This document shows positions 1,475-39,409 of a DNA stretch of 64,000 bases, piece after piece; within the stretch, counting starts at the first letter, position 1; every line of letters starts with the position of its first letter. Position numbers and translations under genes: made by a program. The DNA is from an uncultured Chitinophagales bacterium (GTDB lineage: Bacteria > Bacteroidota > Bacteroidia > Chitinophagales > JADIYW01), in contig CAZBED010000005.1 in assembly GCA_964490845.1 (NCBI GenBank), positions 24,168 to 88,167 on the forward strand. Reading direction: 5' to 3'. The notes under the pieces are model-generated. The model was not told the DNA's origin, did no database searches, and saw nothing but the letters and a program-made list of their open reading frames with translations.

Positions 1475-2245
1475 ATGTTCCAGGCAGATTTATTTAAAGA
1501 CAAGATTGTATTAGTGACAGGCGGAGGCAGTGGTATCGGATATACCATCGCGAAACAATATTTACAGACAGGCGCCATCGTCTACATCGCCTCCAGAAAC
1601 ACCGAAAAGATTGAAAAAGCGATAGGTGAATTGAGTGCATTTGGTGATGTGCGCAGCGCTATTGCCGACATCAGAGAACCGGAGCAGATACAGGCGCTCG
1701 CAGATAAAATAAAGCATGATTCAGGCAGACTGGATATACTAATCAACAATGCAGGCGGCCAGTTTCCAGCAGCTGCGGAAAATATTTCTTTCAACGGCTT
1801 CCGCGCTGTAGTGACCAACAATCTGATTGGTACCTTTTATGTGACACAGATTATGGCAAAGACATTTTTTATTCCTCAGAAGGAAGGAAATATCGTCAAT
1901 ATCATTGCGAATATTTACAGGGGATTTCCGGGAATGGCACATACAGGCGCCGCGCGCGCAGGTGTAGACAACCTTACCAAAACCTTATCCATTGAATGGG
2001 TACGTTACAACATACGGGTAAACGCGGTAGCTCCGGGCATTATTTTATCATCCGGGCTGGACACCTACCCTCCTGCCATCTTGAAAGGTATAACCGACGG
2101 CATTCCGAATAAACGTATGGGTACGATGGAAGAAGTAGGATGGCCTGTTCTCTTTCTCTCCTCTCCGATGGCTTCCTATATCACCGGCGAAACATTGTAT
2201 GTGGATGGCGGAAACCGGCTTTGGGGTGACCAGTGGAAGATGTGA
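1475..2245 (+). CDS. SDR family oxidoreductase (2,4-dienoyl-CoA / trans-2-enoyl-CoA reductase-like)
   Basis: VTGGGSGIG Rossmann motif, NNAG, and overall SDR length. Start moved from TTG 1454 to ATG 1475 (MFQADLFKDKIVLVTGGG). Confidence 0.85.
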   Translation: MFQADLFKDKIVLVTGGGSGIGYTIAKQYLQTGAIVYIASRNTEKIEKAIGELSAFGDVRSAIADIREPEQIQALADKIKHDSGRLDILINNAGGQFPAAAENISFNGFRAVVTNNLIGTFYVTQIMAKTFFIPQKEGNIVNIIANIYRGFPGMAHTGAARAGVDNLTKTLSIEWVRYNIRVNAVAPGIILSSGLDTYPPAILKGITDGIPNKRMGTMEEVGWPVLFLSSPMASYITGETLYVDGGNRLWGDQWKM

Positions 2246-2362
2246 AAGCCCACGTTAACGGGTGATACTTTGGAATAAAGGCCTCGTTAACGAAAAAATT
2301 ACTTACTTTTCTTCTTCCGGAAGTTTAAAATACTTTCGTATTATTATTTACCTACCGTTTGC

Positions 2363-3715
2363 ATGCAAATCAAAGGAACATACCGTGAAATATGGCAGAT
2401 TGCCTTTCCCATCATTCTGGGTAGTCTTGCAAACAGCATCAATCAGCTGATTGATACGGCATTTCTTGGCCATTACAGTAAGATATCTTTAGATGCTGTA
2501 ACGTTAAGCGGTATTTTTTTCTTCAATATCACTTTTATTGCTGGCGGTTTTGCAAGAGGCGCACAGGTGATGATTGCACGTCACAACGGAGAATTACAAT
2601 ACTCCAAAATTGGTGTCGCTTTCGACCACTTACTGACATTTTCCGCTCTGCTTTCCGTCATCATTATGTTCTTTTTTGTATGGGCGTCACCGGCTATCGT
2701 AACTATATCCGTAAAATCAACAGCGATACAACAGGAAGCTTTAACCTATTTAAAATTTATGAATATCGGCGTACCGGCAGCGGTATTCAGCTTTTGTTTT
2801 AATGCCTTTTATTCCGGAATCGGAAAAACAAAAATTATCACCTATGCCACGTTGCTGATGGGCATCACCAACATCATCTTAGGCTATATACTTATTTTCG
2901 GAAAACTTGGCCTGCCGGCAATGGGTATCAAAGGTGCCGCCATTGCAACCACCATCGCGAACGTTGTCTTATTTTTAGTTTACCTCCTCTATTTTATCCG
3001 GCAGCAACATCATAAAATGTATGGCGTTTTTCAGTTCAGGGTTTTGAAAATCATGCAATTCCGCAAAATGATTGATTTGTCGGTTCCTATTGTTTTACAA
3101 AACCTGATTGGCATCACTTCCTGGCAATATTTCTTCTTGTGTGTAGAAAAGCTTGGAGAGCATGAACTGGCGGTTTCTGGCATTCTCAAGAGTCTCTTTG
3201 TCTTTTTGGGTATTCCCGTCTGGAGCCTGGGAAGTGCCGGCAATACCATTATCAGCAACATTATTGGCCAACAAAAATTAGGAGAAGTGATTCCGGCGCT
3301 CAAAAAAGTAATTCTTGTTACCGTAAGCATTTCTTTATCACTTAATCTCTTCATTCTTTTATTTCCCCGGCCTGTTTTATCATTATTTACTAATGATCTG
3401 GAACTGATAAAAGATTGCATCCCCCCGTTTTACACACTGATGATAGCATTGCTGTTTTTTTCATCAGCAATGATTATGAATCAGGGAATTATTGGTACTG
3501 GCGCCACCAAGATACCTGCTTTGGTTGAACTTTTGTGCTGCTTTTCATATATAGGATATTGTTATTACTTTATTCAGCTTAAAGGAAGTCCGTTATATAT
3601 TGCCTGGGGCTGTGAGGTGGTTTATTGGTTTTCATTGCTTACTTTTACTACAGTTTATTGGGGAAGCGGCATATGGAAAAAATTTGTCAGACAAATAGAT
3701 ACAATTACAACGTAA
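2363..3715 (+). CDS. MATE family efflux transporter
   Basis: 450 aa and about 12 hydrophobic segments. N-terminal IWQIAFPIILGSLANSINQLIDTAFLGH is typical of MATE/NorM-like proteins. Confidence 0.85.
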   Translation: MQIKGTYREIWQIAFPIILGSLANSINQLIDTAFLGHYSKISLDAVTLSGIFFFNITFIAGGFARGAQVMIARHNGELQYSKIGVAFDHLLTFSALLSVIIMFFFVWASPAIVTISVKSTAIQQEALTYLKFMNIGVPAAVFSFCFNAFYSGIGKTKIITYATLLMGITNIILGYILIFGKLGLPAMGIKGAAIATTIANVVLFLVYLLYFIRQQHHKMYGVFQFRVLKIMQFRKMIDLSVPIVLQNLIGITSWQYFFLCVEKLGEHELAVSGILKSLFVFLGIPVWSLGSAGNTIISNIIGQQKLGEVIPALKKVILVTVSISLSLNLFILLFPRPVLSLFTNDLELIKDCIPPFYTLMIALLFFSSAMIMNQGIIGTGATKIPALVELLCCFSYIGYCYYFIQLKGSPLYIAWGCEVVYWFSLLTFTTVYWGSGIWKKFVRQIDTITT

Positions 3716-3716
3716 T

Positions 3717-4457
3717 ATGACAACAGGAAAAAAGGAATGGTTTGAACTTTGGTTTGATTCTCCATTCTATCATATTTTATATAAAAACAGGAATCAGGAA
3801 GAAGCACATCAGTTTATTGATGCCGTCTTAAAGCACCTGAGTATTGAATATGGCAGTATTTTAGACCTGGCGTGCGGTAAGGGAAGGCATGCCTATTATC
3901 TGGCACAAAAGGGATTTGATGTAGTGGGTTTGGATTTATCGCCGGAAAGCATTCAGTATGCCAATACCATGTATCAGCTGGACAATCTGGAATTTTATGT
4001 ACACGACATGCGACTGCCTTTCCGGATAAATTATTTTGATTACATTTTTAATTTTTTTACGAGTCTGGGCTATTTTAATGACCTTAGAGAAAATGAAAAG
4101 GTTTTTGAAAGCATGCATTCCGGATTAAAAGATAACGGCCATATACTGATTGATTTTATGAATACGGAAAAAGTCATCAAAAACCTCGTGGCCAGAGAAA
4201 ACAAACTGATAGACGGATACCATTTTTACATTCGGAGAGAAGTCGTCAACGGAAAAATAATCAAGCACATACAAGTGGAAAAGGAAGAAAAGATGTGGGT
4301 CTTCCGGGAGGAAGTACAGGCGCTGATGCAGCATCATTTTCATACTTTCTTAAACAACACCGGGTTTACTTTAATTAAAGAATCCGGAGATTATCATTTA
4401 AATTCGTTTAACCCAAAAACATCCGACAGATATATTTTGTTAGCAAAGAAAAAATAA
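3717..4457 (+). CDS. class I SAM-dependent methyltransferase
   Basis: Motif I ILDLACGKGRHAYYLAQKGFDVVGLDLS. Starts 1 nt after the MATE stop. Confidence 0.85.
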   Translation: MTTGKKEWFELWFDSPFYHILYKNRNQEEAHQFIDAVLKHLSIEYGSILDLACGKGRHAYYLAQKGFDVVGLDLSPESIQYANTMYQLDNLEFYVHDMRLPFRINYFDYIFNFFTSLGYFNDLRENEKVFESMHSGLKDNGHILIDFMNTEKVIKNLVARENKLIDGYHFYIRREVVNGKIIKHIQVEKEEKMWVFREEVQALMQHHFHTFLNNTGFTLIKESGDYHLNSFNPKTSDRYILLAKKK

Positions 4458-4460
4458 GGT

Positions 4461-5108
4461 ATGAGTAAATTAATAGTGATTATCGGTGCCGGCCCGGGTA
4501 TAGCGCAGGGAGTGGCGGAAAAATTCGGCAAAAACGGATTTTCTGTGGCGCTGATATCCAGAAGAAAAGAAAAATTAGAAAAACTTACGGCGGAACTGAA
4601 GCAAAAAGGTATAGACGCACATGATTTTGCGGCTGATGCCGGAGATGCAGAATCCATGAAAGACGCCTTTAACCAGATATGGGAGAAATGGAATGATATT
4701 GATGTAGTGCATTACAACGTGGCAAAAATAAAAATGGTGAATATCGCCAATGAAACGGCGGATGGCCTCACGCGCGACTTTAAAGTAAATGTAGCGGGTG
4801 TGCTGACGATGTTGAATCTGGTGTTATCGGATATGGAAAAGAAAGGGGAAGGCACCATATTACTTACCGGCGGAGGATTTGCCATACAGCCAGACCCGCA
4901 GTTCGGTTCGCTGGCTATTGGAAAGGCTGCTCTCCGAAACCTCGCCAATTCGTTGCACATCGCCTTAAAGCCGAAAAACATTTTTGTCGGCACAGTAACG
5001 GTTTGTGGTTTTGTGAAACCGGATGCAAAAAAACACAATCCGTCAAATATTGCCGACCAGTTCTGGAAATTATACACCGAACGCAACGAATTTGAAATCC
5101 AGTATTAA
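4461..5108 (+). CDS. SDR family NAD(P)-dependent oxidoreductase (short, 215 aa)
   Basis: N-terminal VIIGAGPGIAQGVAEKFGKNGFSVALISRR Rossmann fold. Starts 3 nt after the preceding stop. Confidence 0.8.
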   Translation: MSKLIVIIGAGPGIAQGVAEKFGKNGFSVALISRRKEKLEKLTAELKQKGIDAHDFAADAGDAESMKDAFNQIWEKWNDIDVVHYNVAKIKMVNIANETADGLTRDFKVNVAGVLTMLNLVLSDMEKKGEGTILLTGGGFAIQPDPQFGSLAIGKAALRNLANSLHIALKPKNIFVGTVTVCGFVKPDAKKHNPSNIADQFWKLYTERNEFEIQY

Positions 5109-5138
5109 TAACCATTATTCGTTAAAAAAACAGATATT

Positions 5139-5324
5139 ATGGAAAAACGAAAAATAATTATCCTGTCCGTTTTATTGTCGCTGACAATTGGTAACTATTT
5201 CAGGATAAACAATACTGCCGCCATTCGAACGGTGGATTTTCTTTCCATATTTGTCATCGGTTTACTGGCTGGAATCCTTATTCAGGTATTCATTCATGCA
5301 ATAAGAAATAAAAAACAGCCATGA
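5139..5324 (+). CDS. small two-TM membrane protein (61 aa), unknown function
   Basis: Two hydrophobic helices. Its stop overlaps the next ATG (ATGA at 5321-5324), which suggests translational coupling and a real gene. Confidence 0.5.
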   Translation: MEKRKIIILSVLLSLTIGNYFRINNTAAIRTVDFLSIFVIGLLAGILIQVFIHAIRNKKQP

Positions 5325-6304
5325 GATATTCCCTGCTGCTGATGGTGTTGATGTATGGTTTTAACTCCTTTTCTAAAGGATTACCATCTTTTAACACGGC
5401 TGAGCAACCGGCAGCACCGGATTATTCGGATACCAAATACTGGAGCGCACTCCCCTTTCGCAAAGATGCCGCAGATCTGACACCTAAAAGCGAACAATGG
5501 GTAAACGATTCCCTCAAACAGGTAGATGTTTTTTATGTATATCCGACCTTATACTCGAAAGGAAAAACGTGGAATGCGGATGTAAATAATAAACAGCTCA
5601 ACAAACGGCTGGACCACCTGCCTGTAAAATACCAGGCATCCGTTTTTAACCAGGTAGGCCGGGTGTATGCACCAAGATACAGGCAGGCAATTGTAAAATG
5701 TTTTTTTGATACTACAGACAATGCCACGAAAGCGTTGGACTTCGCATACGACGACGTAAAGCGGGCATTTGAATATTATCTGAAGCACTACAACAACGGA
5801 CGGCCCATTATCATCGCGTCACACAGCCAGGGCACTACACATTGCCGCCGGCTGATAAAAGATTTTTTTGACACCCCGGAAATGAAAGCGAAACTGGTAT
5901 GCGCTTATATCGTCGGTTATGAAGTCAACAAAGAAAACTACCAAGTGCTTACACCCTGCAAAGATGCTGCCGAGACGAACTGCTACGTAACATGGTCCAC
6001 GTTTAAAGATGGTTTTATATACACAGATAAGTTGAAATATTTTGGAAATGTTTGTATAAATCCAGTTTCCTGGAAATCAGATACCCTTTCGGCTATTTCT
6101 TCTGGCGGTATTCTGTTAAATGTAAACCGCAAAAAACATTTCACTACCGAAGCACGCATCTATCAATCTTATTTATGGGCGAAAACCAACCTGACCTTCA
6201 TGCGAAAAAAAGAAGTACTTCACCTGGTGGATTATAACCTCTTCTGGTGGGATATTCGAAAAAATGTATCTCTGCGTGTGAGTGAATACCTGAAAGAAAA
6301 TTGA
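5321..6304 (+). CDS. secreted alpha/beta-hydrolase-like protein (DUF3089-like)
   Basis: Signal-peptide-like N-terminus. VFYVYPT, APRYRQA and the nucleophile-elbow-like IIASHSQGT match my recollection of the DUF3089 family. Confidence 0.6.
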   Translation: MRYSLLLMVLMYGFNSFSKGLPSFNTAEQPAAPDYSDTKYWSALPFRKDAADLTPKSEQWVNDSLKQVDVFYVYPTLYSKGKTWNADVNNKQLNKRLDHLPVKYQASVFNQVGRVYAPRYRQAIVKCFFDTTDNATKALDFAYDDVKRAFEYYLKHYNNGRPIIIASHSQGTTHCRRLIKDFFDTPEMKAKLVCAYIVGYEVNKENYQVLTPCKDAAETNCYVTWSTFKDGFIYTDKLKYFGNVCINPVSWKSDTLSAISSGGILLNVNRKKHFTTEARIYQSYLWAKTNLTFMRKKEVLHLVDYNLFWWDIRKNVSLRVSEYLKEN

Positions 6305-6398
6305 CTTTATCTACAAATCTGATATTTCTCAGTTTTATCAATTGCTATTTGTTGTATTTTTAATTGGTAAATTGTCGTTATCAATTTAGTATCAGAAT

Positions 6399-8141
6399 AT
6401 GTCTGCAATTTTAAACACTCATTCCTCCATCGTACCTAATGTACAGGATTATAACACTTTGTACAACTCCTTTGACTGGAATAAGGAATGCAGCCAGCTT
6501 AACGGGCTTCCCGATAATCAGGGTATCAATATTGCCTTTGAAGCCATAGAACGGCACGCCTGCAGCCATCTCAAAAATACGGTTGCCCTGCGCTGGATAA
6601 AAAAAGACAATAGCGTTCAGGACTTTACCTATAACGATTTACACCACCTGACTTCCAAATTCGCAAATGTGCTGAATACCCTCGGAATACAAAAGGGTGA
6701 ACGCGTTTTTTCATTTACTGGCCGCATTCCAGAATTGTATATTACGGCATTAGGAACCCTCAAAAAAACAGCCGTTTATTGCCCCTTATTCTCTGTATTT
6801 GGCCCTGAGCCGGTTTGGCAACGCCTTAGTAAAGGAGATGCTAAGATATTGGTTACTACCCGTATACAATATGAAAAGAAAATTATGGCAATATGGGATA
6901 AATTGCCGGCATTGCAATACATCCTGCTTACGGATATTGAAGAACATATTTCAGATAATGTGCTTTCCTTCTCAAAATTAATGGAAGCATCCGCTTTGGA
7001 ATTTATTATTCCTCCCACTTCGCCTGATGATCCGGCGTTACTGCATTTTACCAGTGGCACTACCGGCATGCCAAAAGGCGCCTTGCATGTTCACAATGCG
7101 GTGCTTACTCACTATATCACCGGAAAATATGTACTCGATTTTCATGAAGGCGATAGCTACTGGTGTACCGCCGATCCCGGATGGGTAACGGGTACTTCCT
7201 ATGGTATTATTTCTCCCTTTGTAAATGGGGTGACGAATATTATTGATGAAGAAGAATTTGATGCAGTACGATGGTATACCATTTTGCAAAATCAAAAGGT
7301 AAACATTTGGTATACAGCGCCAACAGCTATCCGGCGCCTGATGCGGCTAACAATACAGCCACGTGAGCAATTTAATCTGGAAAACCTTCGACTGATTTTA
7401 AGTGTAGGCGAACCGCTGAATCCCGAAGCTGTTATCTGGGCGCAAAAAACATTTGGTGTTCCCATATTAGATAACTGGTGGCAGACGGAAACAGGCGGCA
7501 TAATGATGGCGAATTACCGTTCTATGCCGGTCAGGCCCGGATCTATGGGAAAACCACTGCCGGGGGTACATGCAGCGATTGCTGAAGAAACGGCAGACGG
7601 ACTGTCATTTATTTCCGAACCCGATAAAAGCGGCCACCTCGTCTTGAAAAAAGGATTTCCTTCTTTGTTCAGAACTTATTTACACGAAGAAGAACGTTAC
7701 AACAAATGTTTTCGCGGTGATTGGTATATGTCTGGTGATTTGGCAAAAAAAGATGCGGATGGTTATTTCTGGTTTGTAGGCAGGGCTGATGATATCATCA
7801 AAACATCCGGACATATGGTAGGGCCGTTTGAAGTGGAGAGTGTCTTAATGGAACACCCCGCTGTGGCTGAAGCCGCTATAATCGGCAAACCGGATCCTGC
7901 TATCGGAGAATTGGTCAAGGCGTTTATTGTATTAAAAACTGGTTCTACTCCGGATGATGCTACTAAACTTGATATCATGGGGTTTGCACGAAAAAAAATG
8001 GGCCCGGCAGTTGCACCAAAAGAAATTTCATTTATCGATAATCTACCCAAAACCAAAAGCGGCAAAATACTGCGACGCCTGTTAAAAGCTAGAGAGCTCG
8101 GTTTGCCGGAAGGCGATTTATCTACCTTAGAACAATCCTGA
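6399..8141 (+). CDS. AMP-forming acyl-CoA/acyl-carrier ligase (acetyl-CoA synthetase-like)
   Basis: Adenylate-forming motifs FTSGTTGMPKG, YWCTADPGWVTG, GDWYMSGD and PKTKSGKILRR. 580 aa. Confidence 0.85.
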   Translation: MSAILNTHSSIVPNVQDYNTLYNSFDWNKECSQLNGLPDNQGINIAFEAIERHACSHLKNTVALRWIKKDNSVQDFTYNDLHHLTSKFANVLNTLGIQKGERVFSFTGRIPELYITALGTLKKTAVYCPLFSVFGPEPVWQRLSKGDAKILVTTRIQYEKKIMAIWDKLPALQYILLTDIEEHISDNVLSFSKLMEASALEFIIPPTSPDDPALLHFTSGTTGMPKGALHVHNAVLTHYITGKYVLDFHEGDSYWCTADPGWVTGTSYGIISPFVNGVTNIIDEEEFDAVRWYTILQNQKVNIWYTAPTAIRRLMRLTIQPREQFNLENLRLILSVGEPLNPEAVIWAQKTFGVPILDNWWQTETGGIMMANYRSMPVRPGSMGKPLPGVHAAIAEETADGLSFISEPDKSGHLVLKKGFPSLFRTYLHEEERYNKCFRGDWYMSGDLAKKDADGYFWFVGRADDIIKTSGHMVGPFEVESVLMEHPAVAEAAIIGKPDPAIGELVKAFIVLKTGSTPDDATKLDIMGFARKKMGPAVAPKEISFIDNLPKTKSGKILRRLLKARELGLPEGDLSTLEQS

Positions 8142-8142
8142 A

Positions 8143-9144
8143 ATGACTGAACAACCAATGATACAAAATGATTTACTGGAAGAGGAAGCCCTGCATCTGC
8201 TTTATCAGATGAAACTCATCCGGCGATTTGAGGAAAAGGCGGCTGAACTATATACGAAAACTCAGATACGCGGGTTTCTACATTTATACATCGGAGAGGA
8301 GGCAGTGGCGGTAGGCGTATCACAGGCACTGAACGAACAGGATATTGTACTGGCTACTTATCGGGAACATGGCCATGCGTTGACACGAAATATTTCTCCC
8401 AAAAAAATCATGGCAGAGATGTTTGGCAAACAGGAAGGATGTAGTGGCGGCAGAGGCGGTTCTATGCATTTATTTGATAAAGAAAAGAACTTTTACGGTG
8501 GTAATGCAATTGTTGCGGGACATATCCCTATAGCTGTTGGCATGGCGCTGGCTGCCAGAAAACAGAAACAGGATAAAATAGTAACTTGTTTTTTTGGTGA
8601 AGGTGCAATGGCTGAAGGAGAATTTCATGAAGCCATGAATCTGGCAGCCTTATGGAAAGTGCCTGTATTATTCATATGCGAAAATAACATGTATGCCATG
8701 GGCACCGCTATTCAATATACCCATGCATCAAAGGAGTTAGACAAAAGAGGTCACGATTACGGCATAGCATCAGCATCGGTGGATGGTATGGATATTCTGA
8801 AAGTTAGGGAGGCCGCCAACAAAGCAGTAGCTTATGTGCGAACCACTGGCAATCCCTATTTTCTGGTGGCAAATACCTATAGGTTCAGGGCGCACTCCAT
8901 GTTTGATGCAGAATTATACCGGGAAAAAAGTGAAGTAGAAGAATGGAAATACCGCGACCCTATTATACTCTTGAAGCAATATATGTTCGACAATCAGTTA
9001 ATCAATGAAACTATCCTTTCTGCAATTGACTCAAAAATTGAAAAGGAGATTCAGGAAGCCACTGATTATGCGGAAACAGCTACCTGGGAACCTGTAGAAC
9101 GTCTGACAAAATTTGTGTACAGCGAAAAAGAGAAGCATGAGTGA
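8143..9144 (+). CDS. 2-oxoacid (pyruvate/acetoin-type) dehydrogenase E1 component, alpha subunit, TPP-dependent
   Basis: [25 protein letters not shown], and the TPP motif [35 protein letters not shown]. Confidence 0.9.
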
Positions 9145-10129
9145 CAGCCCTGTAAAAATCACCTACCGAGAAGCCCTGAAGCAAGGGCTGAGAACAGCAT
9201 TGCAAAATGATGATAAAGTATTCCTGATGGGGGAAGATGTTGGCCGATATGGCGGCGCCTTTGCCATCAGCAAAGGATTGCTCCAGGAATTTGGGGAAGA
9301 CAGGATTATGGATGTCCCGCTTTCCGAATCAGGATTTGTGGGTGCAGGAATTGGCGCAGCACTGAACGGTATGCGGCCGATAGTTGAAATTATGACCGTT
9401 AATTTCAGTTTACTGGCATTAGACCAGATTTTCAATAATGCCGCTACATTCAGTCACATGACCAACGGACAACTGGGTGTTCCGGTTGTCATAAGAATCG
9501 GATGCGGCATTGGACGGCAACTGGCCGCACAGCATTCACATAGCTGGGAGTCGTTTTTCGCACACGTGCCCGGACTTATTGTGCTGGCAGCAGGTACACA
9601 CCGGGATGCAAGGGGAATGTTAGCGGCAGCCTTACAACAGCAAAACCCCGTTATTCTTTTTGAATATACATTTTTGCTCAACATGGAAGCGGAACTAGAG
9701 ACAGATTCAAGTATTATTGACATTAGTGAAGCAAACATATTGCGCAGAGGCAGCGATATTTCCATTATCACCTATGGCGGTGCCGTTCATAAATGTTTGG
9801 CTGCGGCCAAAGAGCTGGAAAATATCGGAATCGACGTGGAAGTGGTGGACATAAGGGTTCTAAGGCCATTAGATGAAGCCACTATACTCGCTTCCGTTGC
9901 AAAGACTCATAAAGCCTTAATCGTGGAAGATGCCTGGCGTTCCGTGAGCATCTCTTCTGAAATTAGTGCGCGTATTACTGAAAACGCATTTTATGAACTG
10001 GATGCGCCGGTACACCGGTTGTGCGGCCTGGAAGTACCCATTCCCTATCCTAAACATCTGGAAGAAGCATCTGTACCGCAGATAACAGATATTGTAAACC
10101 GCGTAAAGAAAATACTGCATCATGATTGA
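9137..10129 (+). CDS. 2-oxoacid dehydrogenase E1 component, beta subunit
   Basis: [11 protein letters not shown]...[15 protein letters not shown]...[11 protein letters not shown] is a typical transketolase-like E1beta. ATG 9137 overlaps the E1alpha stop (ATGAGTGA). Confidence 0.9.
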
Positions 10130-11306
10130 GTTTAAAATGCCCAGTCTCGGAGCTGACATGGAAGACGGCATTCTGCGTGAATGGAAGGTGAAGCCGGGTG
10201 ATACCGTCAAACGAGGTGATATCATTGCCTCTGTAGAAGTACAAAAAGGCAATATAGATATCGAATGTTTTGATGATGGCACGATAACAAAATTACTGGT
10301 CAGCGAAAACGAAAAAGTGCCTGTAGGTATCGTTATGGCATTAATTCAGCCAATAAACGAGCACCTAACAAGCAAAGAAACGACTGTTCCTTTAGTAAAG
10401 ACAAAAAGAGATGAAACTGTAATACCTGATATCAAACAGGAAACAAAAACAGAGGCTATCCTTACCGATAACATAACTACCACCGCCATAAAAGCAACAC
10501 CGCTGGCAAAAAGAATAGCGGCGGAAAATCAAATTGATATATCCACACTGAAAGGAAGTGGCGATGAAGGAGCGATTACCAAAGAAGATGTGGAAAAAGC
10601 AATTAACGAACGAACCGTATTGCCGGTTATCTCTCATTTGACGCCCGCAGAAAACATACGACTGGCAGTAGCTGCCGCTATGAGCAGATCCAACCGCGAG
10701 ATACCACATTATTATCTGGAAAAAAAGATAGATGTTACCAAAGCATTAGCATGGCTTACTGAGCAGAATGCTCAAAGACCAATACAACAACGCCTGTTGC
10801 AGGTCGTGTTGTTTTTAAAGGCAAGCGCCAGAGCACTTCGGGATGTTCCGGAATTAAATGCTGTATGGGAAAATGGATTACAAAAGAAAGAGGGTATTCA
10901 TATCGGGTTTGTCGTTTCACTCAAAGGCGGTGGCATTATGGTACCGGCTATTCATGACGTGGATAAAAAGAGTTTGGATGAAATCATGGCATCGCTGAAC
11001 GATTTGATACCAAGAGCGCGGGCTTTAAAACTGAGAAGTTCTGAACTCAGCGATTCCACTATCACGATGACCAGTTTGGGAGAAGGCGGTGCAGACAAGG
11101 TGTATGGTGTTATCTATCCGCCGCAGGTTGCCATCATTGGCGTTGGGGGCATTCTGAAAGAAATAATGGCTTTAAACGGAGAAAACCGTGAACATGCGTA
11201 TATTTACGCTACACTGGCAGGTGACCACCGGGCTACCGACGGGCTAACAGGCAGTAAATTTTTAGCGGCATTCCATCATTACTTACAACAACCGGAATCC
11301 TTATGA
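10122..11306 (+). CDS. dihydrolipoamide acyltransferase (E2 component)
   Basis: N-terminal lipoyl domain (Lys42), subunit-binding domain [23 protein letters not shown], and a catalytic domain with DHRATDG. ATG overlaps the E1beta stop (ATGATTGA). Confidence 0.9.
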
Positions 11307-11548
11307 ATGAACAAACGATAAAAGATGCAGTAATCGCTATTCTGCTGAACATTGCACCGGATGCGGATACGGCTTCAATAACAGATGAGACCAATTTCCG
11401 CACTGATCTTGGAATGGATTCCTTTGATTTCCTGCAATTAATGACTGCTGTCAGTGAAAAATTTGAACTGGATATTCCCGAACAGGATTATGCCAATGTA
11501 TCAACACTGAAATATTTAACCGATTATATTGTAGCAAAGAAAGTTTAA
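11303..11548 (+). CDS. stand-alone acyl carrier protein
   Basis: 81 aa and acidic. Phosphopantetheine attachment motif DLGMDSFDFLQL. ATGA overlap with the E2 stop. Confidence 0.8.
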   Translation: MNEQTIKDAVIAILLNIAPDADTASITDETNFRTDLGMDSFDFLQLMTAVSEKFELDIPEQDYANVSTLKYLTDYIVAKKV

Positions 11549-11551
11549 CGA

Positions 11552-12145
11552 ATGAATGAGCTTCTGAGATGCCTGAAAGATACAGACGTGAGTATTTTTC
11601 ATTTCATCAATCAAACGATAGCTAATCCTGTATTTGACGTCCTGATGCCTTTGTTGAGAACGGCCACCACCTGGATTCCGCTGTATATTATTTTAAGTGC
11701 GTATGTAATTCACACCCGTAAAAGAGAAGCCTGGGTTTATATACTGTATATGTTGATTGCATTTGCATTAGCAGATTCAATAACACACAATATCCTAAAG
11801 CCGTTTTTTAACCGGTCACGCCCCTGCTATAATGAATTCATTTCAGTCCGGCTATTAGTGAGCCATTGCGGTGGCAGATTAGGTTTTCCATCCACTCATG
11901 CATCCAATCATATGGCCATGGCACTCAGTATCCTGCTAAGCAGCATTTTTTCAAATAAATGGATAAACCTTAGCTGGATTTTTTGGGCAGCAATTATTGG
12001 ATTCGCTCAGATATACGTCGGGTTGCACTACCCCTCCGATATTATCGCAGGCTTTATAACAGGCAGTATACTGGCATACATAAATTTCAAACTGGTATTA
12101 CCGGCACTAAAAGCCAGACACTATAAGTTTATCCAAAAAAAATAA
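11552..12145 (+). CDS. PAP2 superfamily (lipid) phosphatase, membrane protein
   Basis: The three PAP2 motifs KPFFNRSRP, PSTHAS and LHYPSD lie within a polytopic membrane protein. Starts 3 nt after the ACP stop. Confidence 0.8.
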   Translation: MNELLRCLKDTDVSIFHFINQTIANPVFDVLMPLLRTATTWIPLYIILSAYVIHTRKREAWVYILYMLIAFALADSITHNILKPFFNRSRPCYNEFISVRLLVSHCGGRLGFPSTHASNHMAMALSILLSSIFSNKWINLSWIFWAAIIGFAQIYVGLHYPSDIIAGFITGSILAYINFKLVLPALKARHYKFIQKK

Positions 12146-12156
12146 GAGAAAAATTG

Positions 12157-12231
12157 GGACAACGATGGGGTTCGAACCCACGACCCTCGGAACCACAATC
12201 CGATGCTCTAACCAACTGAGCTACGATGTCC
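12157..12231 (-). tRNA. tRNA-His (anticodon GTG)
   Basis: The reverse complement folds as a cloverleaf. The anticodon stem TCGGA/TCCGA flanks loop TTGTGGT (GTG). T arm is GTGGG-TTCGAAC-CCCAT. An extra 5' G can pair with C73, as in bacterial tRNA-His. There is one U-U mismatch in the acceptor stem, and CCA is not fully encoded. Confidence 0.85.
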
Positions 12232-12327
12232 ATTTACATTATAAGAACGGACTGCAAAGATAGAATTTTATTTTAAAAACAGAAATTCTGGTTTTTTTAC
12301 TTAAGAAATACTTAATGTAGAAAGAAA

Positions 12328-12357
12328 AAAGCCGACTCATATCAACGAGACGGCTTT
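12328..12357 (-). terminator. rho-independent terminator downstream of ahcY
   Basis: The minus strand reads AAAGCCGTCTC-gttgatat-GAGTCGGCTTT, with one internal mismatch. TTTTTTCTTT follows. Confidence 0.5.
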
Positions 12358-12399
12358 TATAAGATGCTAAAACAAGTTCAGCATGACGATGCATATCTA

Positions 12400-13728
12400 C
12401 TAGTATCTATAGTACTCCGGTTTGTAAGGACCAGCCACAGGAATGTTCAAATAAGCACTTTGTTCAGGAGTTAATTCATCCAGTTCCACGCCTATCTTAG
12501 CCAGGTGTAAACGGGCAACTTTTTCATCTAAATGCTTTGGTAACATGTACACCTTGTTTTCGTATTTGTCAGCGTTAGCCCACAACTCTAACTGAGCAAT
12601 CACCTGATTGGAGAAAGAGTTAGACATTACAAAGGAAGGGTGACCGGTAGCGCAACCTAAGTTCACTAAACGACCTTCAGCCAGCAAGATGATGTCTTTA
12701 CCGTCAATGGTATATAAATCAACCTGTGGTTTGATGGTGTTTTTAGTATGACCGTAGTTTGTGTTCAACCAGGCAACATCAATCTCGATGTCAAAGTGGC
12801 CTATGTTACAAACAATCGCTTTATCTTTCATGGATTTGAAATGTTCACCTGTGATGATGTCACGACAACCTGTAGTTGTCACGATAATGTCCGCTTCTTT
12901 TACCGCATCTTTCATTTTTTTCACTTCAAAACCTTCCATGGCAGCCTGTAATGCACAAATCGGGTCGATTTCTGTAATGATGACGCGAGCACCGGCACCA
13001 CGTAATGATTCCGCAGAACCTTTACCTACGTCACCAAAACCGGCAACCACCGCCACTTTACCTGCAATCATTACATCAGTAGCACGACGGATCGCATCTA
13101 CACAACTTTCACGGCAGCCGTATTTGTTGTCAAATTTGGATTTTGTAACCGAATCGTTGATATTGATAGCCGGAATCAGTAAAGTTCCGTGCTCCATTCT
13201 TTCGTATAAACGGTGAACCCCTGTAGTGGTTTCTTCCGATAAACCTCTGATGCCTTTCGCCAGTTCAGGATAGTTATCAAACACCATATTGGTTAAGTCG
13301 CCGCCGTCATCCAGAATCATATTTAACGGACGGTCAGGAGAACCAAAGAACAAAGTTTGTTCGATGCACCAGTTGAATTCTTCTTCATTCAGGCCTTTCC
13401 ATGCAAATACCGGAATACCGGCAGCAGCAATGGCAGCGGCAGCGTGGTCCTGAGTAGAGAAAATGTTGCAGGAAGACCAGGTCACTTCTGCGCCTAAAGC
13501 CACCAACGTTTCAATCAACACTGCCGTTTGAATCGTCATGTGTAAGCAACCCGCGATACGAGCACCTTTTAAAGGCTGAGAAGGACCAAATTCTTCACGA
13601 AGTGCCATTAAACCAGGCATTTCCGCTTCAGCAAGCGTTATTTCTTTGCGACCCCATTCTGCAAGGGACATGTCTTTAACTTTGTATTTCAAGCTAAAGT
13701 CAATAGAGGATGATGTAGTAGTTGACAT
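12400..13728 (-). CDS. ahcY: adenosylhomocysteinase
   Basis: Near-textbook sequence: [31 protein letters not shown]-binding [10 protein letters not shown], and the C-terminal YRY tail. 442 aa. Confidence 0.97.
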
Positions 13729-13747
13729 ATTTTTTGTTTTGTTGACG

Positions 13748-13755
13748 CAAAATTA
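13748..13755 (-). promoter_or_regulatory. candidate -7 box TAATTTTG for ahcY
   Basis: Exact TAnnTTTG on the minus strand, about 20 nt upstream of the ahcY ATG. The -33 region is only T-rich (CTTTTTAT). Confidence 0.35.
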
Positions 13756-13768
13756 CATCATCGTATTT

Positions 13769-14078
13769 AATAAAAAGTTGTCTTGTGGCAAGAAATGAAA
13801 ATGTCTGAATATTGATTTTTCATAAGTGTTTGTATTAGAATCATTCTCAGCAGAGTATCCTGAAAGGTACTCTGCGTTTGTAATTACTACGCAGAGTCCT
13901 CTACGAGAGACTCTGCTATGAAATAAAAAGTTGTCTTGTGGCAAGAAATGAAAATGTCTGAATATTGATTTTCATAAGTGTTTGTATTAGAATCATTCTC
14001 AGCAGAGTATCCTGAAAGGTACTCTGCGCTTGTAATGACTACGCAGAGTCCTCTACGAGAGACTCTGCTATGAAATAA
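13769..14078. repeat. head-to-tail tandem duplication (153 + 152 bp, ~98% identical) carrying four GCAGAGT-arm hairpins
   Basis: Unit 1 is 13774-13926 and unit 2 is 13927-14078. They differ by one T in a T-run and two substitutions. AATAA microhomology lies at 13769-13773 and at each unit end. Hairpins in unit 1 are GCAGAGTA-N10-TACTCTGC (13850-13875) and GCAGAGTC-N10-GACTCTGC (13891-13916). Confidence 0.9.
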
Positions 14079-14119
14079 GAGACGTAACCGCAATATCAGG
14101 AAGAAAATTGGTTTAAATA

Positions 14120-14151
14120 TTTGGAAATATGTCGGGTTGCCTCTATTTTTG
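14120..14151 (+). promoter_or_regulatory. candidate Bacteroidetes sigma-A promoter (TTTG-N20-TATTTTTG) for the deacetylase/formyltransferase operon
   Basis: TTTG at 14120-14123 and an exact TAnnTTTG at 14144-14151. ATG 14195 lies 44 nt downstream. Confidence 0.4.
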
Positions 14152-14194
14152 GTTGTGAGATTTATTTTCACGATTTTTGAGTGAATCTACCGAT

Positions 14195-15118
14195 ATGATA
14201 AGAAATTTTCTGTTTCATCGTGTATATCCGGAACGGGATATTCTGTGGGACCCCATGGATGTAAAACTTTTTGAGAAATGCATCAAGCATCTTTCCGGCA
14301 ATTACGATGTCGTCCGTATTGAAGATTTGGTCAAATCGGGGAATATACAGGGCAGAAACAAATACGCTACCATCAATTTTGACGACGGCTACAAAGACAA
14401 TATTGACTATGCCGCCGACATACTGGAAAAATACCACTGCAAGGCTTCCTTTTATGTGGTGACGGATTGCATTGACAGAAACGTGCCGACGTGGACTCAT
14501 GTGTTAGAGCATACCTTCCAGCACACGAAACATTCCAGAATCGATTTAAACTACGATTTTTTAGCTCCTGAATTACGAGTATCGGAACTAAAGACAAAAG
14601 AAGAAAGGATAGCCTATGTCAAGAAGCTGAAACCTTTTTTAAAGAATATATCCCACGCAAACAGGACGGAAGTGCTGGAAAATGTGGTAAAGAGCTTTTC
14701 CGATGCCGAGTTGCCCAAATTAATGATGAACTGGGATGACCTGAAACAACTCCACCAGGCAGGCCATTACATCGGCTCCCACACCGTAACACATTGCATG
14801 CTCGGAACAATGGACAATCTCGACGAAATAAGATATGAACTGCAGCATTCCGCTCAAACTATACAACAGCATCTCGGCTATTTTCCGGTGACCATATCCT
14901 ATCCCGTTGGAAGTTTCAACGAAACCACCAAAAAGCTAAGCAAAGAAGCCGGTTATGAAATCGGCCTGGCTGTCAAACAAAATACCTACGATCCGCAAAA
15001 AGACGATGTGTTTGAAATCCCCAGGATAGAACTGTATAATGAACCCTGGTGGAAAACCAGACTAAGAATCACAAACACACTTGAAAATATAAAAACATTA
15101 ATCGGTTATAAGAAATGA
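14195..15118 (+). CDS. polysaccharide deacetylase (NodB/CE4) family protein
   Basis: NodB motifs INFDDGYKDN and GSHTVTHCML. Start moved from TTG 14177 to ATG 14195. Confidence 0.85.
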   Translation: MIRNFLFHRVYPERDILWDPMDVKLFEKCIKHLSGNYDVVRIEDLVKSGNIQGRNKYATINFDDGYKDNIDYAADILEKYHCKASFYVVTDCIDRNVPTWTHVLEHTFQHTKHSRIDLNYDFLAPELRVSELKTKEERIAYVKKLKPFLKNISHANRTEVLENVVKSFSDAELPKLMMNWDDLKQLHQAGHYIGSHTVTHCMLGTMDNLDEIRYELQHSAQTIQQHLGYFPVTISYPVGSFNETTKKLSKEAGYEIGLAVKQNTYDPQKDDVFEIPRIELYNEPWWKTRLRITNTLENIKTLIGYKK

Positions 15119-15918
15119 AAATTGTTCTCTGGATAGGCAACGAATCCAACCAAAAGGCACTGGCGAATAAGATACAGGCGCAATACCCTATTAGTGGTAT
15201 TATTCTGGAAAGCAGAAAGACCAAAACCAAAATCACCCTGGCTAAGATTATAGAAAAAGTAGTGGAAAAACTGTTTTTAAAAGCTATTGCTGACGCATGG
15301 TGGGGAATGAAACGCTACTACAATGACATTTATCCCGACTATCCTCAGGTAAAAACGATTGATGTGGAAAACATCAACTCCCAGGCTGCTTTTGATTTCA
15401 CAACAGAACTAGCGCCGGATTTAATTATCGTTTCCGGTACGAGATTATTAAAAGAAAAGATGTTGTCCATAAAACCGGATATAGGTATATTGAATCTACA
15501 TACTGGCTTGTCCCCTTATGTAAAGGGCGGACCGAACTGTACCAACTGGTGTATTGCCACTAAACAATATCACCTTATCGGCAATACCATTATGTGGATC
15601 GATTTGGGAATTGATACCGGCAATATCATCACCACTGAATTTACAGCATTTGACGGCAATGAGAGTTTACTGGACGTTCATAAGAAGGTAATGGATCATG
15701 CACATCAACTATATATGAAAGCCATCGGGTTTCTGATAAACGGCAATCATTCCAATGTAAAACAAAACGACATCGCTAAAGGCACCACCTACTATACCCG
15801 GCAGTGGGGCCTGAAAGAAAAAATCAGGCTGGTATGGAACATGAAAGACTTCCGCAAGAGCATAAAATCCGGAGCAACTGAAAGACTGAAAAAAGATATT
15901 GTCACCGTTCCGATTTAA
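15115..15918 (+). CDS. formyltransferase catalytic-domain protein (Fmt/ArnA N-terminal-domain-like)
   Basis: PDLIIVSGTRLL...ILNLHTGLSPYVKGG matches the N-x-H...SLLP..RG-type formyltransferase core. A downstream Asp-containing loop is IDLGIDTGNII. ATGA overlap with the deacetylase stop. Confidence 0.75.
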   Translation: MKIVLWIGNESNQKALANKIQAQYPISGIILESRKTKTKITLAKIIEKVVEKLFLKAIADAWWGMKRYYNDIYPDYPQVKTIDVENINSQAAFDFTTELAPDLIIVSGTRLLKEKMLSIKPDIGILNLHTGLSPYVKGGPNCTNWCIATKQYHLIGNTIMWIDLGIDTGNIITTEFTAFDGNESLLDVHKKVMDHAHQLYMKAIGFLINGNHSNVKQNDIAKGTTYYTRQWGLKEKIRLVWNMKDFRKSIKSGATERLKKDIVTVPI

Positions 15919-16011
15919 GGATGCACGCAGGATAATTATTTTAACTTATCGATTTGTATCTTCACCAAATGAAATATGTTTGGAGAGAATACCATTTAAT
16001 TAAAATAAAAA

Positions 16012-16457
16012 GTGAAAATAGTGAAAAACTATAAGCAATATAATGACCAATATTTTTCAAGGTGGGCACCTGTATATGACGTATTTGAAATTCTCCTGGC
16101 TGATGTCCGAAGAGATATTACAAAAACAATCCATCCCGTCGGCAAATCAGTTTTAGATGTTGGAACCGGAGCCTGGGATTACACGATATGCCATTAGAAA
16201 TAAGAACTTTAGTATTAAAGGAAGTAAAACGAGTTTTAAAAAGTAACGGAAAACTATTCATCTTAGATTATGATTTACCCCAAAACGATTTTCTAGGAAC
16301 TGTTTCATCTCACTTGATTAATCTACTTGAGAGTAAATACTACCTTGATTTTATTAAAGCTGATTTTGAGTCTTACCTGAGTACACTTGGATTTAAAATG
16401 GAGAAAAAAACAAACTATCTGTTTGGATATTTAAGATTTATCACCCTGACCAAATAA
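16012..16457 (+). pseudogene. class I SAM-dependent methyltransferase remnant (internal deletion plus frame change)
   Basis: Frame 1 encodes the N-terminus through motif I (SVLDVGTG), then stops at 16195-16197. Frame 3 continues from SLGLHDMPLEIRTLVLKEVKRVLKSNGKLFILDYD (post-motif III to the C-terminus). Roughly 60-75 codons between the two parts are missing. Confidence 0.6.
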
Positions 16458-31100: not shown

Positions 31101-31113
31101 TTATTTTTTTCAT
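25150..31113 (-). pseudogene. giant T9SS type-B (gliding-motility-associated C-terminal domain) repeat adhesin, one reading frame interrupted by a single in-frame TGA (28567-28569)
   Basis: ORFs 28567..31113 and 25150..28557 are in the same frame. The listed Met of the downstream ORF is a TTG Leu inside the repeat consensus GGLSGNP. The N-terminus has a signal peptide, two Cys-rich domains and a PKD-like domain. Three QW(Y/L)LN-type Ig-like domains and 14 repeats of 70 aa are also present. The C-terminus is PNAFSPNRDGVNDCF...IFNRWGEKVF...WDG, a T9SS type-B CTD. Confidence 0.85.
26344..29289 (-). repeat. 14 tandem 210-213-bp coding repeats (70-71 aa Ig-like modules)
   Basis: The unit is KPNPTVTVNSPSICDGQTxSLTANGATTYxWTGGLSGNPATTPALNxTTTYTVTGTTNGCTGTAVATVTV. 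It repeats 14 times head-to-tail with very high DNA identity. The plus-strand mirror ORFs show the same periodicity. Confidence 0.95.
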
Positions 31114-39384: not shown

Positions 39385-39409
39385 GTCTTAATTTATTTTA
39401 TTGCAATAA

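Follow-up and report, generated by a model that had tools for sequence, protein, structure and literature searches.

The transfer of an acyl group from a lipoyl-bearing E2 to a stand-alone acyl carrier protein (ACP) is known from the quinocarcin (QncN/L/M) and scleric acid (SclQ1-4) systems, in which glycolyl-ACP is the product. The sequence-only reading of the locus described here had pointed to a precedent of this kind, and it is real. As in the present locus, the genes for a ThDP-dependent E1, an E2 acyltransferase with a lipoyl group and a stand-alone ACP lie together, and E3 is absent from the cluster. Unlike it, the Qnc and Scl genes are embedded in NRPS gene clusters of actinomycetes, of which the scl cluster also encodes a PPTase. 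The glycolyl unit is formed there from ketose phosphates, and an Acs-like ligase is missing. Compared with the descriptions of these systems, the present locus encodes PDH-type E1α/E1β and an acetate-specific ligase, has no biosynthetic neighbours and occurs in more than 10 phyla as well as on plasmids. A similar concept is found in citrate lyase, where an AMP-forming acetate ligase (CitC) places the acetyl group on the thiol of a carrier reserved for it (CitD), which in turn serves a partner enzyme. However, other protein families are involved, lyase subunits are not part of the present locus, and the prosthetic group of CitD differs, being 2'-(5''-phosphoribosyl)-3'-dephospho-CoA.

The single enzymes resemble better-known ones. 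The pyruvate dehydrogenase (PDH) complex of the alphaproteobacterial/mitochondrial type (pdhA-pdhB-pdhC-lpdA) shares the heterotetrameric E1 and the lipoyl, PSBD and catalytic domains of E2 and forms the sister clade in trees, whereas the cassette includes an Acs-like gene and an ACP as an obligate member, and most of its loci lack lpd in the operon. The acetoin dehydrogenase AcoABC[L] shares the E1α/β and lipoyl-E2 architecture and the acetyl transfer chemistry, but the locus has an ACP and a ligase and no acoR, acoX or butanediol dehydrogenase. The ligase has the acetate pocket, hinge Asp, Gly524, Arg584 and catalytic Lys in common with AcsA-type acetyl-CoA synthetase (Bacillus AcsA, 9g79). 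It differs at Arg526, one of three Arg residues that are described as highly conserved and on which CoA binding and the thioester-forming step depend.

Composition and spread of the cassette

Within the window, i.e. the whole stretch of 64,000 nucleotides that was analysed, positions 6399-11548 hold one copy of a self-contained five-gene unit of ligase, E1α, E1β, E2 and an 81-aa ACP. A PAP2 gene follows, and the six + strand genes were verified in an ORF check; coordinates and junctions matched the sequence-only reading exactly, and its six protein identities were confirmed by Pfam and NCBIfam. The block is made up of two separate things, the five-gene cassette and the PAP2 gene of a host operon.

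The AcsA-like, acetate-specific and AMP-forming ligase (580 aa; 6399-8141) ends with TGA at 8139-8141, and the ATG of E1α (TPP-binding subunit, 333 aa; 8143-9144) follows at 8143. The E1α stop overlaps the start of E1β (330 aa; 9137-10129) as ATGAGTGA at 9137-9144, E1β overlaps E2 (394 aa; 10122-11306) as ATGATTGA at 10122-10129, and the E2 stop overlaps the start of the ACP (11303-11548) as ATGA at 11303-11306. Between the ACP stop and the PAP2 ATG at 11552 lie 3 nt. The sole intergenic gap of the block (94 nt, + strand, 6305-6398) is the leader or promoter region and the 5' insertion boundary of the cassette; neither an Rfam element nor a convincing FNR box was found in it.

The reference set comprised 80 loci from the GTDB species-representative genome collection, in which the genes were sought by tblastn and HMM searches. 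About 80 species genomes, spread over more than 10 phyla, show the same gene order, as do plasmids. Among the 80 loci, Bacteroidota, Acidobacteriota, Chloroflexota, Verrucomicrobiota, Cyanobacteria, Planctomycetota, Desulfobacterota, Actinomycetota, Alphaproteobacteria, Binatia and others are represented, and plasmid-borne copies occur in Desulfotalea, Rhodococcus, Leisingera and Burkholderia. E1β was found in 77 of the 78 evaluable loci, E1α in 72 of 73 and the ligase in 63 of 65. The cassette is thus a conserved, horizontally mobile unit of five genes which moves closed on plasmids.

The ACP (PF00550) was present in 77 of 78 evaluable loci. Of 75 independent loci, which represent many phyla, 59 shared the -4 nt overlap of E2 stop and ACP start, a coupling far above chance. 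In a reciprocal test with an ACP profile, the cassette was found at 4/4 loci and all matches lay at the cassette end. The ACP is therefore an integral, obligate partner of E1/E2 and ligase and not a fortuitous neighbour, as had been considered under a duller reading of the genes as an acetoin operon (acoABC plus acs). It scored below all AcpP cut-offs (NCBIfam) and has a signature of its own (IAPE...DIDSFD...IPE.DY). No fusion to E2 or ligase was seen, a point against the ACP shuttle proposed below; the best 120 ACP relatives were all stand-alone.

All catalytic motifs had been called intact. This holds for Lys42 of the lipoyl domain and His369 in DHRATDG of E2 as well as for Asp39-Ser40 (DSFD) of the ACP, all of which are invariant among the relatives; the TPP motif of E1α, however, reads G-E-G in the window (D or E across the clade), and the third PAP2 motif is non-canonical.

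Insertion into a host operon

Related Chitinophagales without the cassette share the backbone SDR-MatE-methyltransferase-SDR-DUF3089-PAP2-tRNA-His-AdoHcyase, so the cassette is an insertion between DUF3089 (327 aa, PF11288; 5321-6304, + strand) and PAP2 (a membrane phosphatase of 197 aa, PF01569; 11552-12145, + strand). In three loci without the cassette (L103, L104 and L105), PAP2 orthologues directly follow DUF3089 (L103 and L104) or an SDR. The 3' end of DUF3089 aligns with L103 through the stop codon and diverges beyond it, and DUF3089 was also seen upstream of the cassette in another locus, L084. The convergent tRNA-His (GTG; 12156-12230, - strand; ARAGORN and Rfam) marks the operon boundary and follows PAP2 in L103 and L081, too.

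PAP2 adjoined the cassette in 0/80 reference-genome loci and stayed behind the ACP only in close relatives, down to 65% E2 identity. Of the proposed co-occurrence with the E1/E2 clade, the part concerning the ACP was thus borne out, while PAP2 has to be dropped as a member of the unit, since it is missing in 80/80 reference loci and present without the cassette in relatives. It is a bystander because the cassette sits between two genes of an older operon, and the 3-nt spacing is a by-product of the insertion, DUF3089 and PAP2 being contiguous in cassette-less relatives. In its third motif (C3), the usual Ser-Arg is replaced by Ala-Gln, which is invariant in this PAP2 family; His159 and Asp163 are retained. 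The mobile cassette and its insertion are the part of the explanation in which we have high confidence.

Properties of the dehydrogenase and the ligase

E1α (PF00676) exceeded the cut-off of TIGR03182 (444 vs 394) and E1β (Transket_pyr and Transketolase_C) that of NF006667 (383 vs 321). E2 has the Pfam domains Biotin_lipoyl, E3_binding and 2-oxoacid_dh, but fell below all NCBIfam E2 equivalog cut-offs (225 vs 445 for the PDH E2 equivalog), and it ends 2 residues earlier at the C-terminus than reference E2s do. Its PSBD is invariant among cassette relatives. The closest PDB relatives are human PDH E1α for E1α and mitochondrial E2 for E2. In trees, E1α, E1β and E2 form their own clade apart from annotated acetoin operons and canonical pdhABC-lpd, the E1α clade having canonical PDH, rather than Aco, as its sister. 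Identity to canonical PDH was 43% for E1α and 33% for E2.

No homologue of Lpd, LipB or LplA was detected across the 64-kb window (tblastn, E ≤ 1). The earlier remark that E3 is missing is correct for the window, but it marks nothing special, as E2 retains a canonical E3/E1-binding domain and lpd adjoins the ACP in some lineages (two loci); in three other loci, lipB or lplA follows the ACP. E3 is probably the general dihydrolipoamide dehydrogenase of the cell, acting in trans.

The ligase (AMP-binding and AMP-binding_C in Pfam) scored 877 bits against the acetate--CoA ligase equivalog NF003313 (cut-off 729), and its best PDB match was AcsA 9g79 with 550 bits over full length. The acetate pocket V310/T311/V386/W414 is invariant in 68/68 cassette ligases, and so are G524, R584 and K609 (n = 68). 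Trp414 sets acetate specificity. All 68 have Met or Leu in place of Arg526 (Met473 in the window copy), and further clade switches relative to AcsA are T412N, Y263F, S267T and M253T. True Acs needs Arg526 for the CoA step: variants at the equivalent position had a 130-326-fold lower kcat, and an Ala variant was not saturable with CoA. The residue touches the phosphate of the acyl-adenylate and not CoA itself. Carrier-protein-loading adenylating enzymes usually retain its equivalent, too. For both reasons, its loss is no specific signature of ACP use. CoA may still be the substrate of the ligase, since the equivalog cut-off is exceeded and Arg584, the contact of the CoA 3'-phosphate, is kept.

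Possible role of the carrier protein

In the mechanism we prefer, pyruvate (or an acetyl donor close to it) would be oxidatively decarboxylated by E1 and the lipoyl arm of E2 acetylated. From there, E2 would pass the acetyl group on to the cognate holo-ACP, whose phosphopantetheine thiol would accept it in place of CoA or beside it, and the ligase would interconvert acetyl-S-ACP with AMP and PPi and free acetate with ATP. Because E2 would load the ACP and the ligase would act on the same thioester, the ACP may be a private, protein-bound CoA surrogate joining both enzymes. The ACP as thiol acceptor, pyruvate as substrate and the direction of flux are what we infer here. Judged by the sequences, the conserved acetate pocket including Trp414 speaks for acetyl chemistry and the universal change of Arg526 to Met or Leu for an altered thiol step, and the Qnc and Scl systems offer a precedent for the transfer from E2 to an ACP. 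This shuttle is a tentative proposal that we regard as possible, though on balance doubtful.

A conventional supply of acetyl-CoA, from pyruvate by E1/E2 and from acetate by the AcsA-like enzyme, is rather unlikely. The ACP would then be an accessory and not the acetyl acceptor; it might serve, for instance, in regulation, in assembly or stability, or as the source of octanoyl groups in E2 lipoylation. PGAP/NCBIfam names (acetate--CoA ligase and pdhA), the retained Arg584 and full adenylation machinery and the ordinary catalytic domain of E2 fit this, and mitochondrial ACPs acting as structural subunits rank among the nearest relatives of the ACP in the PDB. It leaves the 4-nt E2-ACP coupling across more than 10 phyla without a reason, however, and the universal loss of Arg526 unexplained. 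Octanoyl-ACP is the substrate of LipB, and lipB or lplA lies directly 3' of the ACP in several loci; yet these are only 3/80, none of the cassette genes would provide for octanoate synthesis on the ACP, and the pocket of the ligase is of a size for acetate.

That acetyl-ACP or a short acyl-ACP from pyruvate and acetate primes a lipid or small-molecule pathway with PAP2 involved, as first proposed, is distinctly improbable. The Qnc and Scl precedent of E1/E2 loading an ACP for biosynthesis, the tight conservation of the ACP, a nearby Aas-like gene (AMP-binding/PP-binding/acyltransferase) in one locus and the persistence of PAP2 in the close relatives argue for it, but conserved KS, AT, condensation, PPTase or lipid-synthesis genes are lacking beside the cassette in at least 80 loci, and among 139 nearest neighbours each Pfam family occurred in at most 4. 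Such a role is therefore without contextual support; PAP2 is an older backbone gene found without the cassette, which occurs elsewhere without PAP2, and plasmids carry the closed five-gene unit. Least probable is catabolism of acetoin or 2,3-butanediol, with AcoABC cleaving acetoin to acetyl-CoA and acetaldehyde and Acs recovering the acetaldehyde-derived acetate. Gene sizes similar to acoABC, the compatible acetyl chemistry, the link of AcsA to acetoin use in Bacillus and an SDR (possibly an acetoin reductase) whose gene precedes that of the ligase in about 5 loci are in its favour. Against this, E1α, E1β and E2 branch apart from three annotated acetoin operons, which have acoR/acoX, lpdA and butanediol dehydrogenase. 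E1α of the window was 52-70% identical within the cassette clade and 35-37% to these operons, and E2 43-64% and 21-30%, respectively; with 43%, E1α is closer to canonical PDH than to the acetoin operons. The window contains no acoR, acoX, butanediol dehydrogenase or aldehyde dehydrogenase, and the ACP would be left unexplained.

As a whole, the preferred explanation (mobile cassette, insertion, bystander PAP2, E3 in trans and ACP shuttle) appears plausible, if somewhat short of probable. PpsA (12), PRTase (13), USP (10), P-type ATPase (10), Hsp20 (8) and BON (8) were neighbours among the 80 loci, and 42/80 had at least one of these stress/hypoxia markers. Plasmid copies adjoin ppsA, pfkB, USP, Hsp20 and a GAF sensor kinase. 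This context was not seen in the present window, and an enrichment of FNR boxes was not found. The low-oxygen lxa island of B. cenocepacia is analogous, with AckA/Pta instead. An NADH-producing dehydrogenase would be an unexpected enzyme under hypoxia, which counts against the preferred explanation. The cassette is widespread and apparently new to the literature, in which no publication describing it was found, and it may be used under oxygen limitation or dormancy.

A five-gene cassette within an older Chitinophagales operon

The six co-directional genes on the plus strand that the sequence-only reading had delimited were borne out, with their overlaps, by the ORF listing and by direct reading of the junctions. 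The window itself has the appearance of a Bacteroidota (Chitinophagales) genome. The first gene (6399-8141) encodes an AcsA-like ligase with a score of 877 bits on NF003313 (acetate--CoA ligase; cut-off 729). It is followed by E1alpha (8143-9144; PF00676; TIGR03182 444, cut-off 394), E1beta (9137-10129; PF02779 and PF02780; NF006667 383, above cut-off), E2 (10122-11306; PF00364 Biotin_lipoyl, PF02817 E3_binding and PF00198 2-oxoacid_dh), an ACP of 81 aa (11303-11548; PF00550 PP-binding, 4e-11) and a gene with a match to Pfam PAP2 (11552-12145). These profile matches show the domains of a type II ACP and of 2-oxoacid dehydrogenase E1alpha/E1beta and E2. The E2 scored below every NCBIfam E2 equivalog cut-off, and the ACP below those of all AcpP models (TIGR00517 45.9 vs 70.45), so that by score it is not the housekeeping AcpP. 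K42, H369 and D373 of E2 were invariant in the alignment of relatives; D39 and S40 of the ACP, its Asp-Ser phosphopantetheine attachment site, are likewise invariant.

All catalytic motifs had been regarded as intact. This holds for the lipoyl Lys, DHRxxDG and the Asp-Ser of the ACP, but the Mg/TPP motif of E1alpha reads G-E-G and the third PAP2 motif is noncanonical. In the PAP2 protein, C1 (K83...R90-P91; canonical KX6RP) and C2 (P113-S114-T-H116; canonical PSGH) are present. H159 and D163 of C3 (canonical SRX5HX3D) are kept, with A152-Q153 at the position of SR; this Ala-Gln pair is invariant throughout the family, as are C1, C2 and the His and Asp of C3. The protein scored far under the UppP and PgpB equivalog cut-offs.

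PAP2 had also been counted as a member of the unit, which did not hold, as no PAP2 match was found beside the cassette in 80/80 loci. Only close relatives (81%, 69% and 65% E2 identity) have the gene behind the ACP, and in a relative with 63% E2 identity it does not lie beside the cassette. The PAP2 family itself is spread Chitinophagales-wide. In three cassette-less loci (L103, L104 and L105), PAP2 comes immediately after a DUF3089 or an SDR gene. The cassette-less backbone reads SDR-MatE-methyltransferase-SDR-DUF3089-PAP2-tRNA-His-AdoHcyase, the last two on the minus strand, and corresponds to 1475-13728 in the window (L103 2244-9222; L105 3326-7573). In a DNA alignment, the 3' end of the window's DUF3089 gene and the 5' end of its PAP2 gene both matched the contiguous junction of L103. 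Because DUF3089 and PAP2 are contiguous without the cassette and the L103 junction matches on both sides, the cassette (~6305-11551) constitutes an insertion into an older operon. The insertion is old, with neither border repeats nor a GC or GC3 anomaly of the cassette found. Judging from these junctions, the 3-nt spacing between ACP and PAP2 is a trace of insertion history and not of shared function. PAP2 and the lipase-like DUF3089 protein might act jointly on a lipid. The locus is a clean case of a metabolic cassette inside a pre-existing operon, in which close gene spacing gave a false hint of a functional link.

Elsewhere in the window, CHU_C/Ig_7 T9SS cargo proteins are encoded at 25150-26835 and 28567-31113. 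The ~1.7 kb between them (26836-28566) contain no ATG-initiated ORF of at least 90 aa and no Rfam match. Further downstream come a hemC-hemD gene fusion (31193-32779) and the transhydrogenase genes pntAB (37555-40528), followed on the minus strand by an ORF of 1747 aa (47491-52734) and two ORFs of ~800 aa each (52785-55169 and 56035-58443).

Distribution and affiliation of the cassette

At least 585 stretches encode a relative of the E2, and 80 loci were fetched from species-representative genomes through an alignment of E2 relatives. Presence of the other genes was counted by profile and tblastn searches in evaluable loci only. E1beta was found in 77/78, E1alpha in 72/73, the AcsA-like ligase in 63/65 and the ACP in 77/78, in every case in the order ligase-E1alpha-E1beta-E2-ACP. 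The sole locus without ACP (L024) has also lost E1 and ligase. In 59/75 loci, the start of the ACP gene and the E2 stop share exactly 4 nt, and the ACP family shares the signature IAPE...R..LDIDSFD.L.F...IPE.DY. Reciprocally, when the ACP profile was the only query, the three ACPs obtained (four loci) each lay at the end of the same cassette. The loci belong to Bacteroidota, Acidobacteriota, Chloroflexota, Verrucomicrobiota, Cyanobacteria, Planctomycetota, Desulfobacterota, Actinomycetota, Alphaproteobacteria, Binatia and others. Plasmid copies occur in Desulfotalea psychrophila LSv54, Rhodococcus sp. DK17, Leisingera methylohalidivorans and Burkholderia savannae, where PGAP names the genes acsA, pdhA, 'alpha-ketoacid dehydrogenase subunit beta', 'dihydrolipoamide acetyltransferase family protein' and 'phosphopantetheine-binding protein' or 'acyl carrier protein'.

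Some variants of the arrangement were observed. E1alpha and E1beta are fused in one 1998-nt gene in Leisingera cassettes (6953-8950 on the L. methylohalidivorans plasmid, L091), and a Desulfobacterales MAG carries the ACP in two tandem copies (L080 11227-11873). In three Chitinophagaceae/Bacteroidota loci, E2 and ACP are separated by a glucokinase gene (PF02685; L002 11206-12249, L004 11187-12209 and L007 11216-12235), and in several others small DUF5655 and Zn-ribbon genes stand between E1alpha and E1beta. An apparent E2-ACP fusion from ORF clustering (L026) turned out to be two genes in different frames, the long ORF being a high-GC artefact. No ACP fusions were found; the best 120 ACP-family proteins are all stand-alone.

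The affiliation of the complex was studied against three annotated acetoin operons (acoR-acoX-acoABC; sigma54 regulator-lpdA-acoABC-butanediol dehydrogenase; acoABCL-acetoin reductase) and one canonical pdhABC-lpdA operon, all of them annotated and not biochemically characterised. In neighbour-joining distance trees, calculated without bootstraps, the cassette E1alpha, E1beta and E2 each formed one clade on a long stem, with the Bacteroidota copies clustering and the cassette E1 as sister to canonical PDH rather than Aco. The window's E1alpha shares 35-37% identity with Aco, 43% with PDH and 52-70% within the cassette; the corresponding values for E2 are 21-30%, 33% (Sphingobium pdhC) and 43-64%. 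Among plasmid relatives, cassette-type E1alpha proteins are 51-60% identical to the window protein, followed by alphaproteobacterial pdhA with ~44% and acetoin-type proteins with ~35-40%. An ordinary acetoin operon (acoABC with acs) had been put forward as the plain alternative. The E1 and E2 do not nest in the annotated acetoin operons by trees and identities, and none of the aco-type neighbours acoR, acoX, bdh and acoL was found in the window. A housekeeping PDH was rejected as well, with the E2 far below the cut-off of the PDH E2 model (TIGR01349, 225 vs 445) and in a clade separate from canonical pdhC. The lipoyl-Lys context was discarded as a clade marker as it varies inside the clade.

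All cassette E2s, including that of the window (11295-11306), end two residues early with ...PESL or ...PEKL, whereas the reference PDH and Aco E2s extend to ...PLTLLA or ...PALILV. In E2 cores, the inter-trimer 'knob' is made up of the terminal hydrophobic residues, and the oligomeric state of the cassette E2 may differ from that of the reference E2s.

The missing E3 had been pointed out before. Lpd, LipB and LplA homologues are indeed absent from the 64-kb window, but as a missing lpd is common in these operons, this is unremarkable. An lpd gene (Pyr_redox_2/Pyr_redox_dim) follows the ACP in Anaerolineales loci, with adjacent lpd in L027 and L033; in loci of Desulfuromonadaceae and Desulfobulbaceae, as on the Desulfotalea plasmid, the gene behind the ACP is lipB or lplA. 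Together with the canonical peripheral-subunit-binding domain kept in E2, these adjacencies support a genuine lipoate- and E3-dependent complex, for which E3 (Lpd) probably comes from elsewhere in the genome.

The ligase and the gene neighbourhood

Sixty-eight cassette ligases were aligned with E. coli Acs and AcsA (PDB 9g79). V310, T311, V386 and W414 of the acetate pocket as well as D517, G524, R584 and K609 were invariant in 68/68 sequences. Arg526, present in both references, is replaced in 68/68 cassette ligases by Met (49) or Leu (19), the window carrying Met473. The cassette ligase hence has the model score, the acetate pocket and the Lys609 of Acs/AcsA; of the conserved arginine trio it retains R584 and lacks R526, while the alignment is gappy at R191, where AcsA differs as well. 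According to published work, Trp414/416 determines acetate specificity, and with the pocket kept, the acyl group handled is almost certainly acetyl. Acs proteins show high conservation of R191, R526 and R584 (PMC10455477). R526 touches the phosphate of the acyl-adenylate and stabilises the thioester-forming conformation; Lys and Gln variants of the R526 equivalent showed a 130-326-fold reduced kcat, and the Ala variant was not saturated by CoA (PMC10455477). Given this role and the universal loss of R526, the alignment indicates that the second half-reaction is remodelled in this clade. A remodelled thiol step is compatible with another thiol partner but no proof of one.

No conserved sixth gene emerged when 954 flanking ORFs were clustered and the 139 closest neighbours were searched with Pfam; recurrent minus-strand 'families' (4, 5, 10 and 18) were recognised as shadow ORFs. 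Biosynthetic neighbours were found in none of 80 or more loci. Over the full flanks, phosphoribosyltransferase genes occur in 13/80 loci, PEP synthase in 12/80 (~0.3 expected for a single-copy gene), USP in 10/80 (19 genes), P-type ATPase in 10/80, and Hsp20 and BON in 8/80 each; CBS, nitroreductase and hemerythrin genes recur, too. At least one such marker is present in 42/80 loci and none in the window. The plasmid copies adjoin ppsA, a pfkB-family kinase, USP, Hsp20 and a GAF sensor kinase. These neighbourhoods resemble islands of the DosR or low-oxygen type. Comparable companions are present at the lxa locus of B. cenocepacia, which carries AckA/Pta in place of the cassette.

Upstream of the ligase, the best FNR/CRP box had on average 2.9 mismatches vs 3.2 in shuffled sequences, and no such box was found in the window. 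The leader contained no riboswitch or known RNA by Rfam, and sigma-70 promoter and terminator scans, whose models do not cover Bacteroidota promoters, did not exceed shuffles. From the neighbourhoods we infer, with moderate strength only, a use under oxygen limitation or dormancy, since the association is partial and absent in the window and the FNR box shows no clear enrichment.

Further genes were observed near single cassettes. On one metagenomic contig (L101), an Aas-like gene of 841 aa (8921-11446; AMP-binding/PP-binding/acyltransferase) lies just downstream of cassette and Hsp20. The closest relative (L081, 81% E2 identity) differs from the window in its flanking genes, with a catalase-peroxidase upstream and, a few kb downstream (12825-16120), a split pyruvate formate-lyase with its activase.

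Proposed acetyl transfer to a dedicated ACP

The best-supported reading of these data is an ACP shuttle. E1 would acetylate the lipoyl arm of E2 with pyruvate or a similar compound as the acetyl donor, and the acetyl group would move from E2 to the phosphopantetheine thiol of the translationally coupled ACP. The acetate-specific ligase would then interconvert acetyl-S-ACP and acetate with AMP+PPi/ATP. The ACP would thus serve as a private CoA surrogate, with Lpd from elsewhere in the genome reoxidising the lipoyl arm, and flux could run either way, towards ATP-yielding acetate formation or towards acetate activation. Transfer from a lipoyl-E2 to an ACP is known from QncN/L/M and SclQ1-4, and the cassette likewise combines E1, lipoyl-E2 and a stand-alone ACP. 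The QncN/L/M type is, however, embedded in an NRPS/PKS cluster, whereas the cassette has no biosynthetic neighbours in the 80 or more loci. CitC/CitD provide a precedent for an acetate ligase that charges a carrier protein.

The genes could also form a conventional CoA-dependent module with the ACP as an accessory. They could supply acetyl-ACP to a pathway encoded elsewhere, or serve acetoin catabolism. Each of these explanations leaves at least one of three features unexplained, namely the obligate coupling of the ACP, the mobility of a closed set of five genes and the universal loss of Arg526. A more specific form of the ACP shuttle, which we regard as improbable, is a CoA-independent energy-conserving shunt, in which the PDH-like complex would place acetyl on the ACP and the Arg526-remodelled ligase would run in reverse with AMP and PPi to yield ATP and acetate. 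If true, non-growing or oxygen-limited cells would possess a private substrate-level phosphorylation that functionally replaces Pta-AckA, and PEP synthase, which would often lie next to the cassette, could likewise turn AMP into ATP.

What is rated as new here is that a 2-oxoacid dehydrogenase complex comes with an ACP and a ligase of its own; no published account of the cassette was found in the full-text literature searched, most subscription journals lying outside its coverage. An ACP that truly substitutes for CoA in an energy-conserving route would be categorically new. The five proteins are small and soluble, and cultured hosts of the cassette comprise Desulfotalea psychrophila LSv54, Rhodococcus sp. 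DK17, Leisingera methylohalidivorans DSM 14336, Segetibacter koreensis DSM 18137 and Flavobacterium spp.

Because pipelines at present annotate the genes as acsA, pdhA and 'phosphopantetheine-binding protein', they enter metabolic reconstructions unnoticed as a normal PDH together with an Acs, which touches many environmental MAGs and strict anaerobes. In the textbook view, 2-oxoacid dehydrogenase complexes depend on CoA. A large, phylogenetically scattered and plasmid-borne clade in which a carrier protein and an acetate ligase are constant companions points to another wiring, in which pyruvate-derived acetyl units could ride on a protein-bound thiol, apart from the CoA pool.
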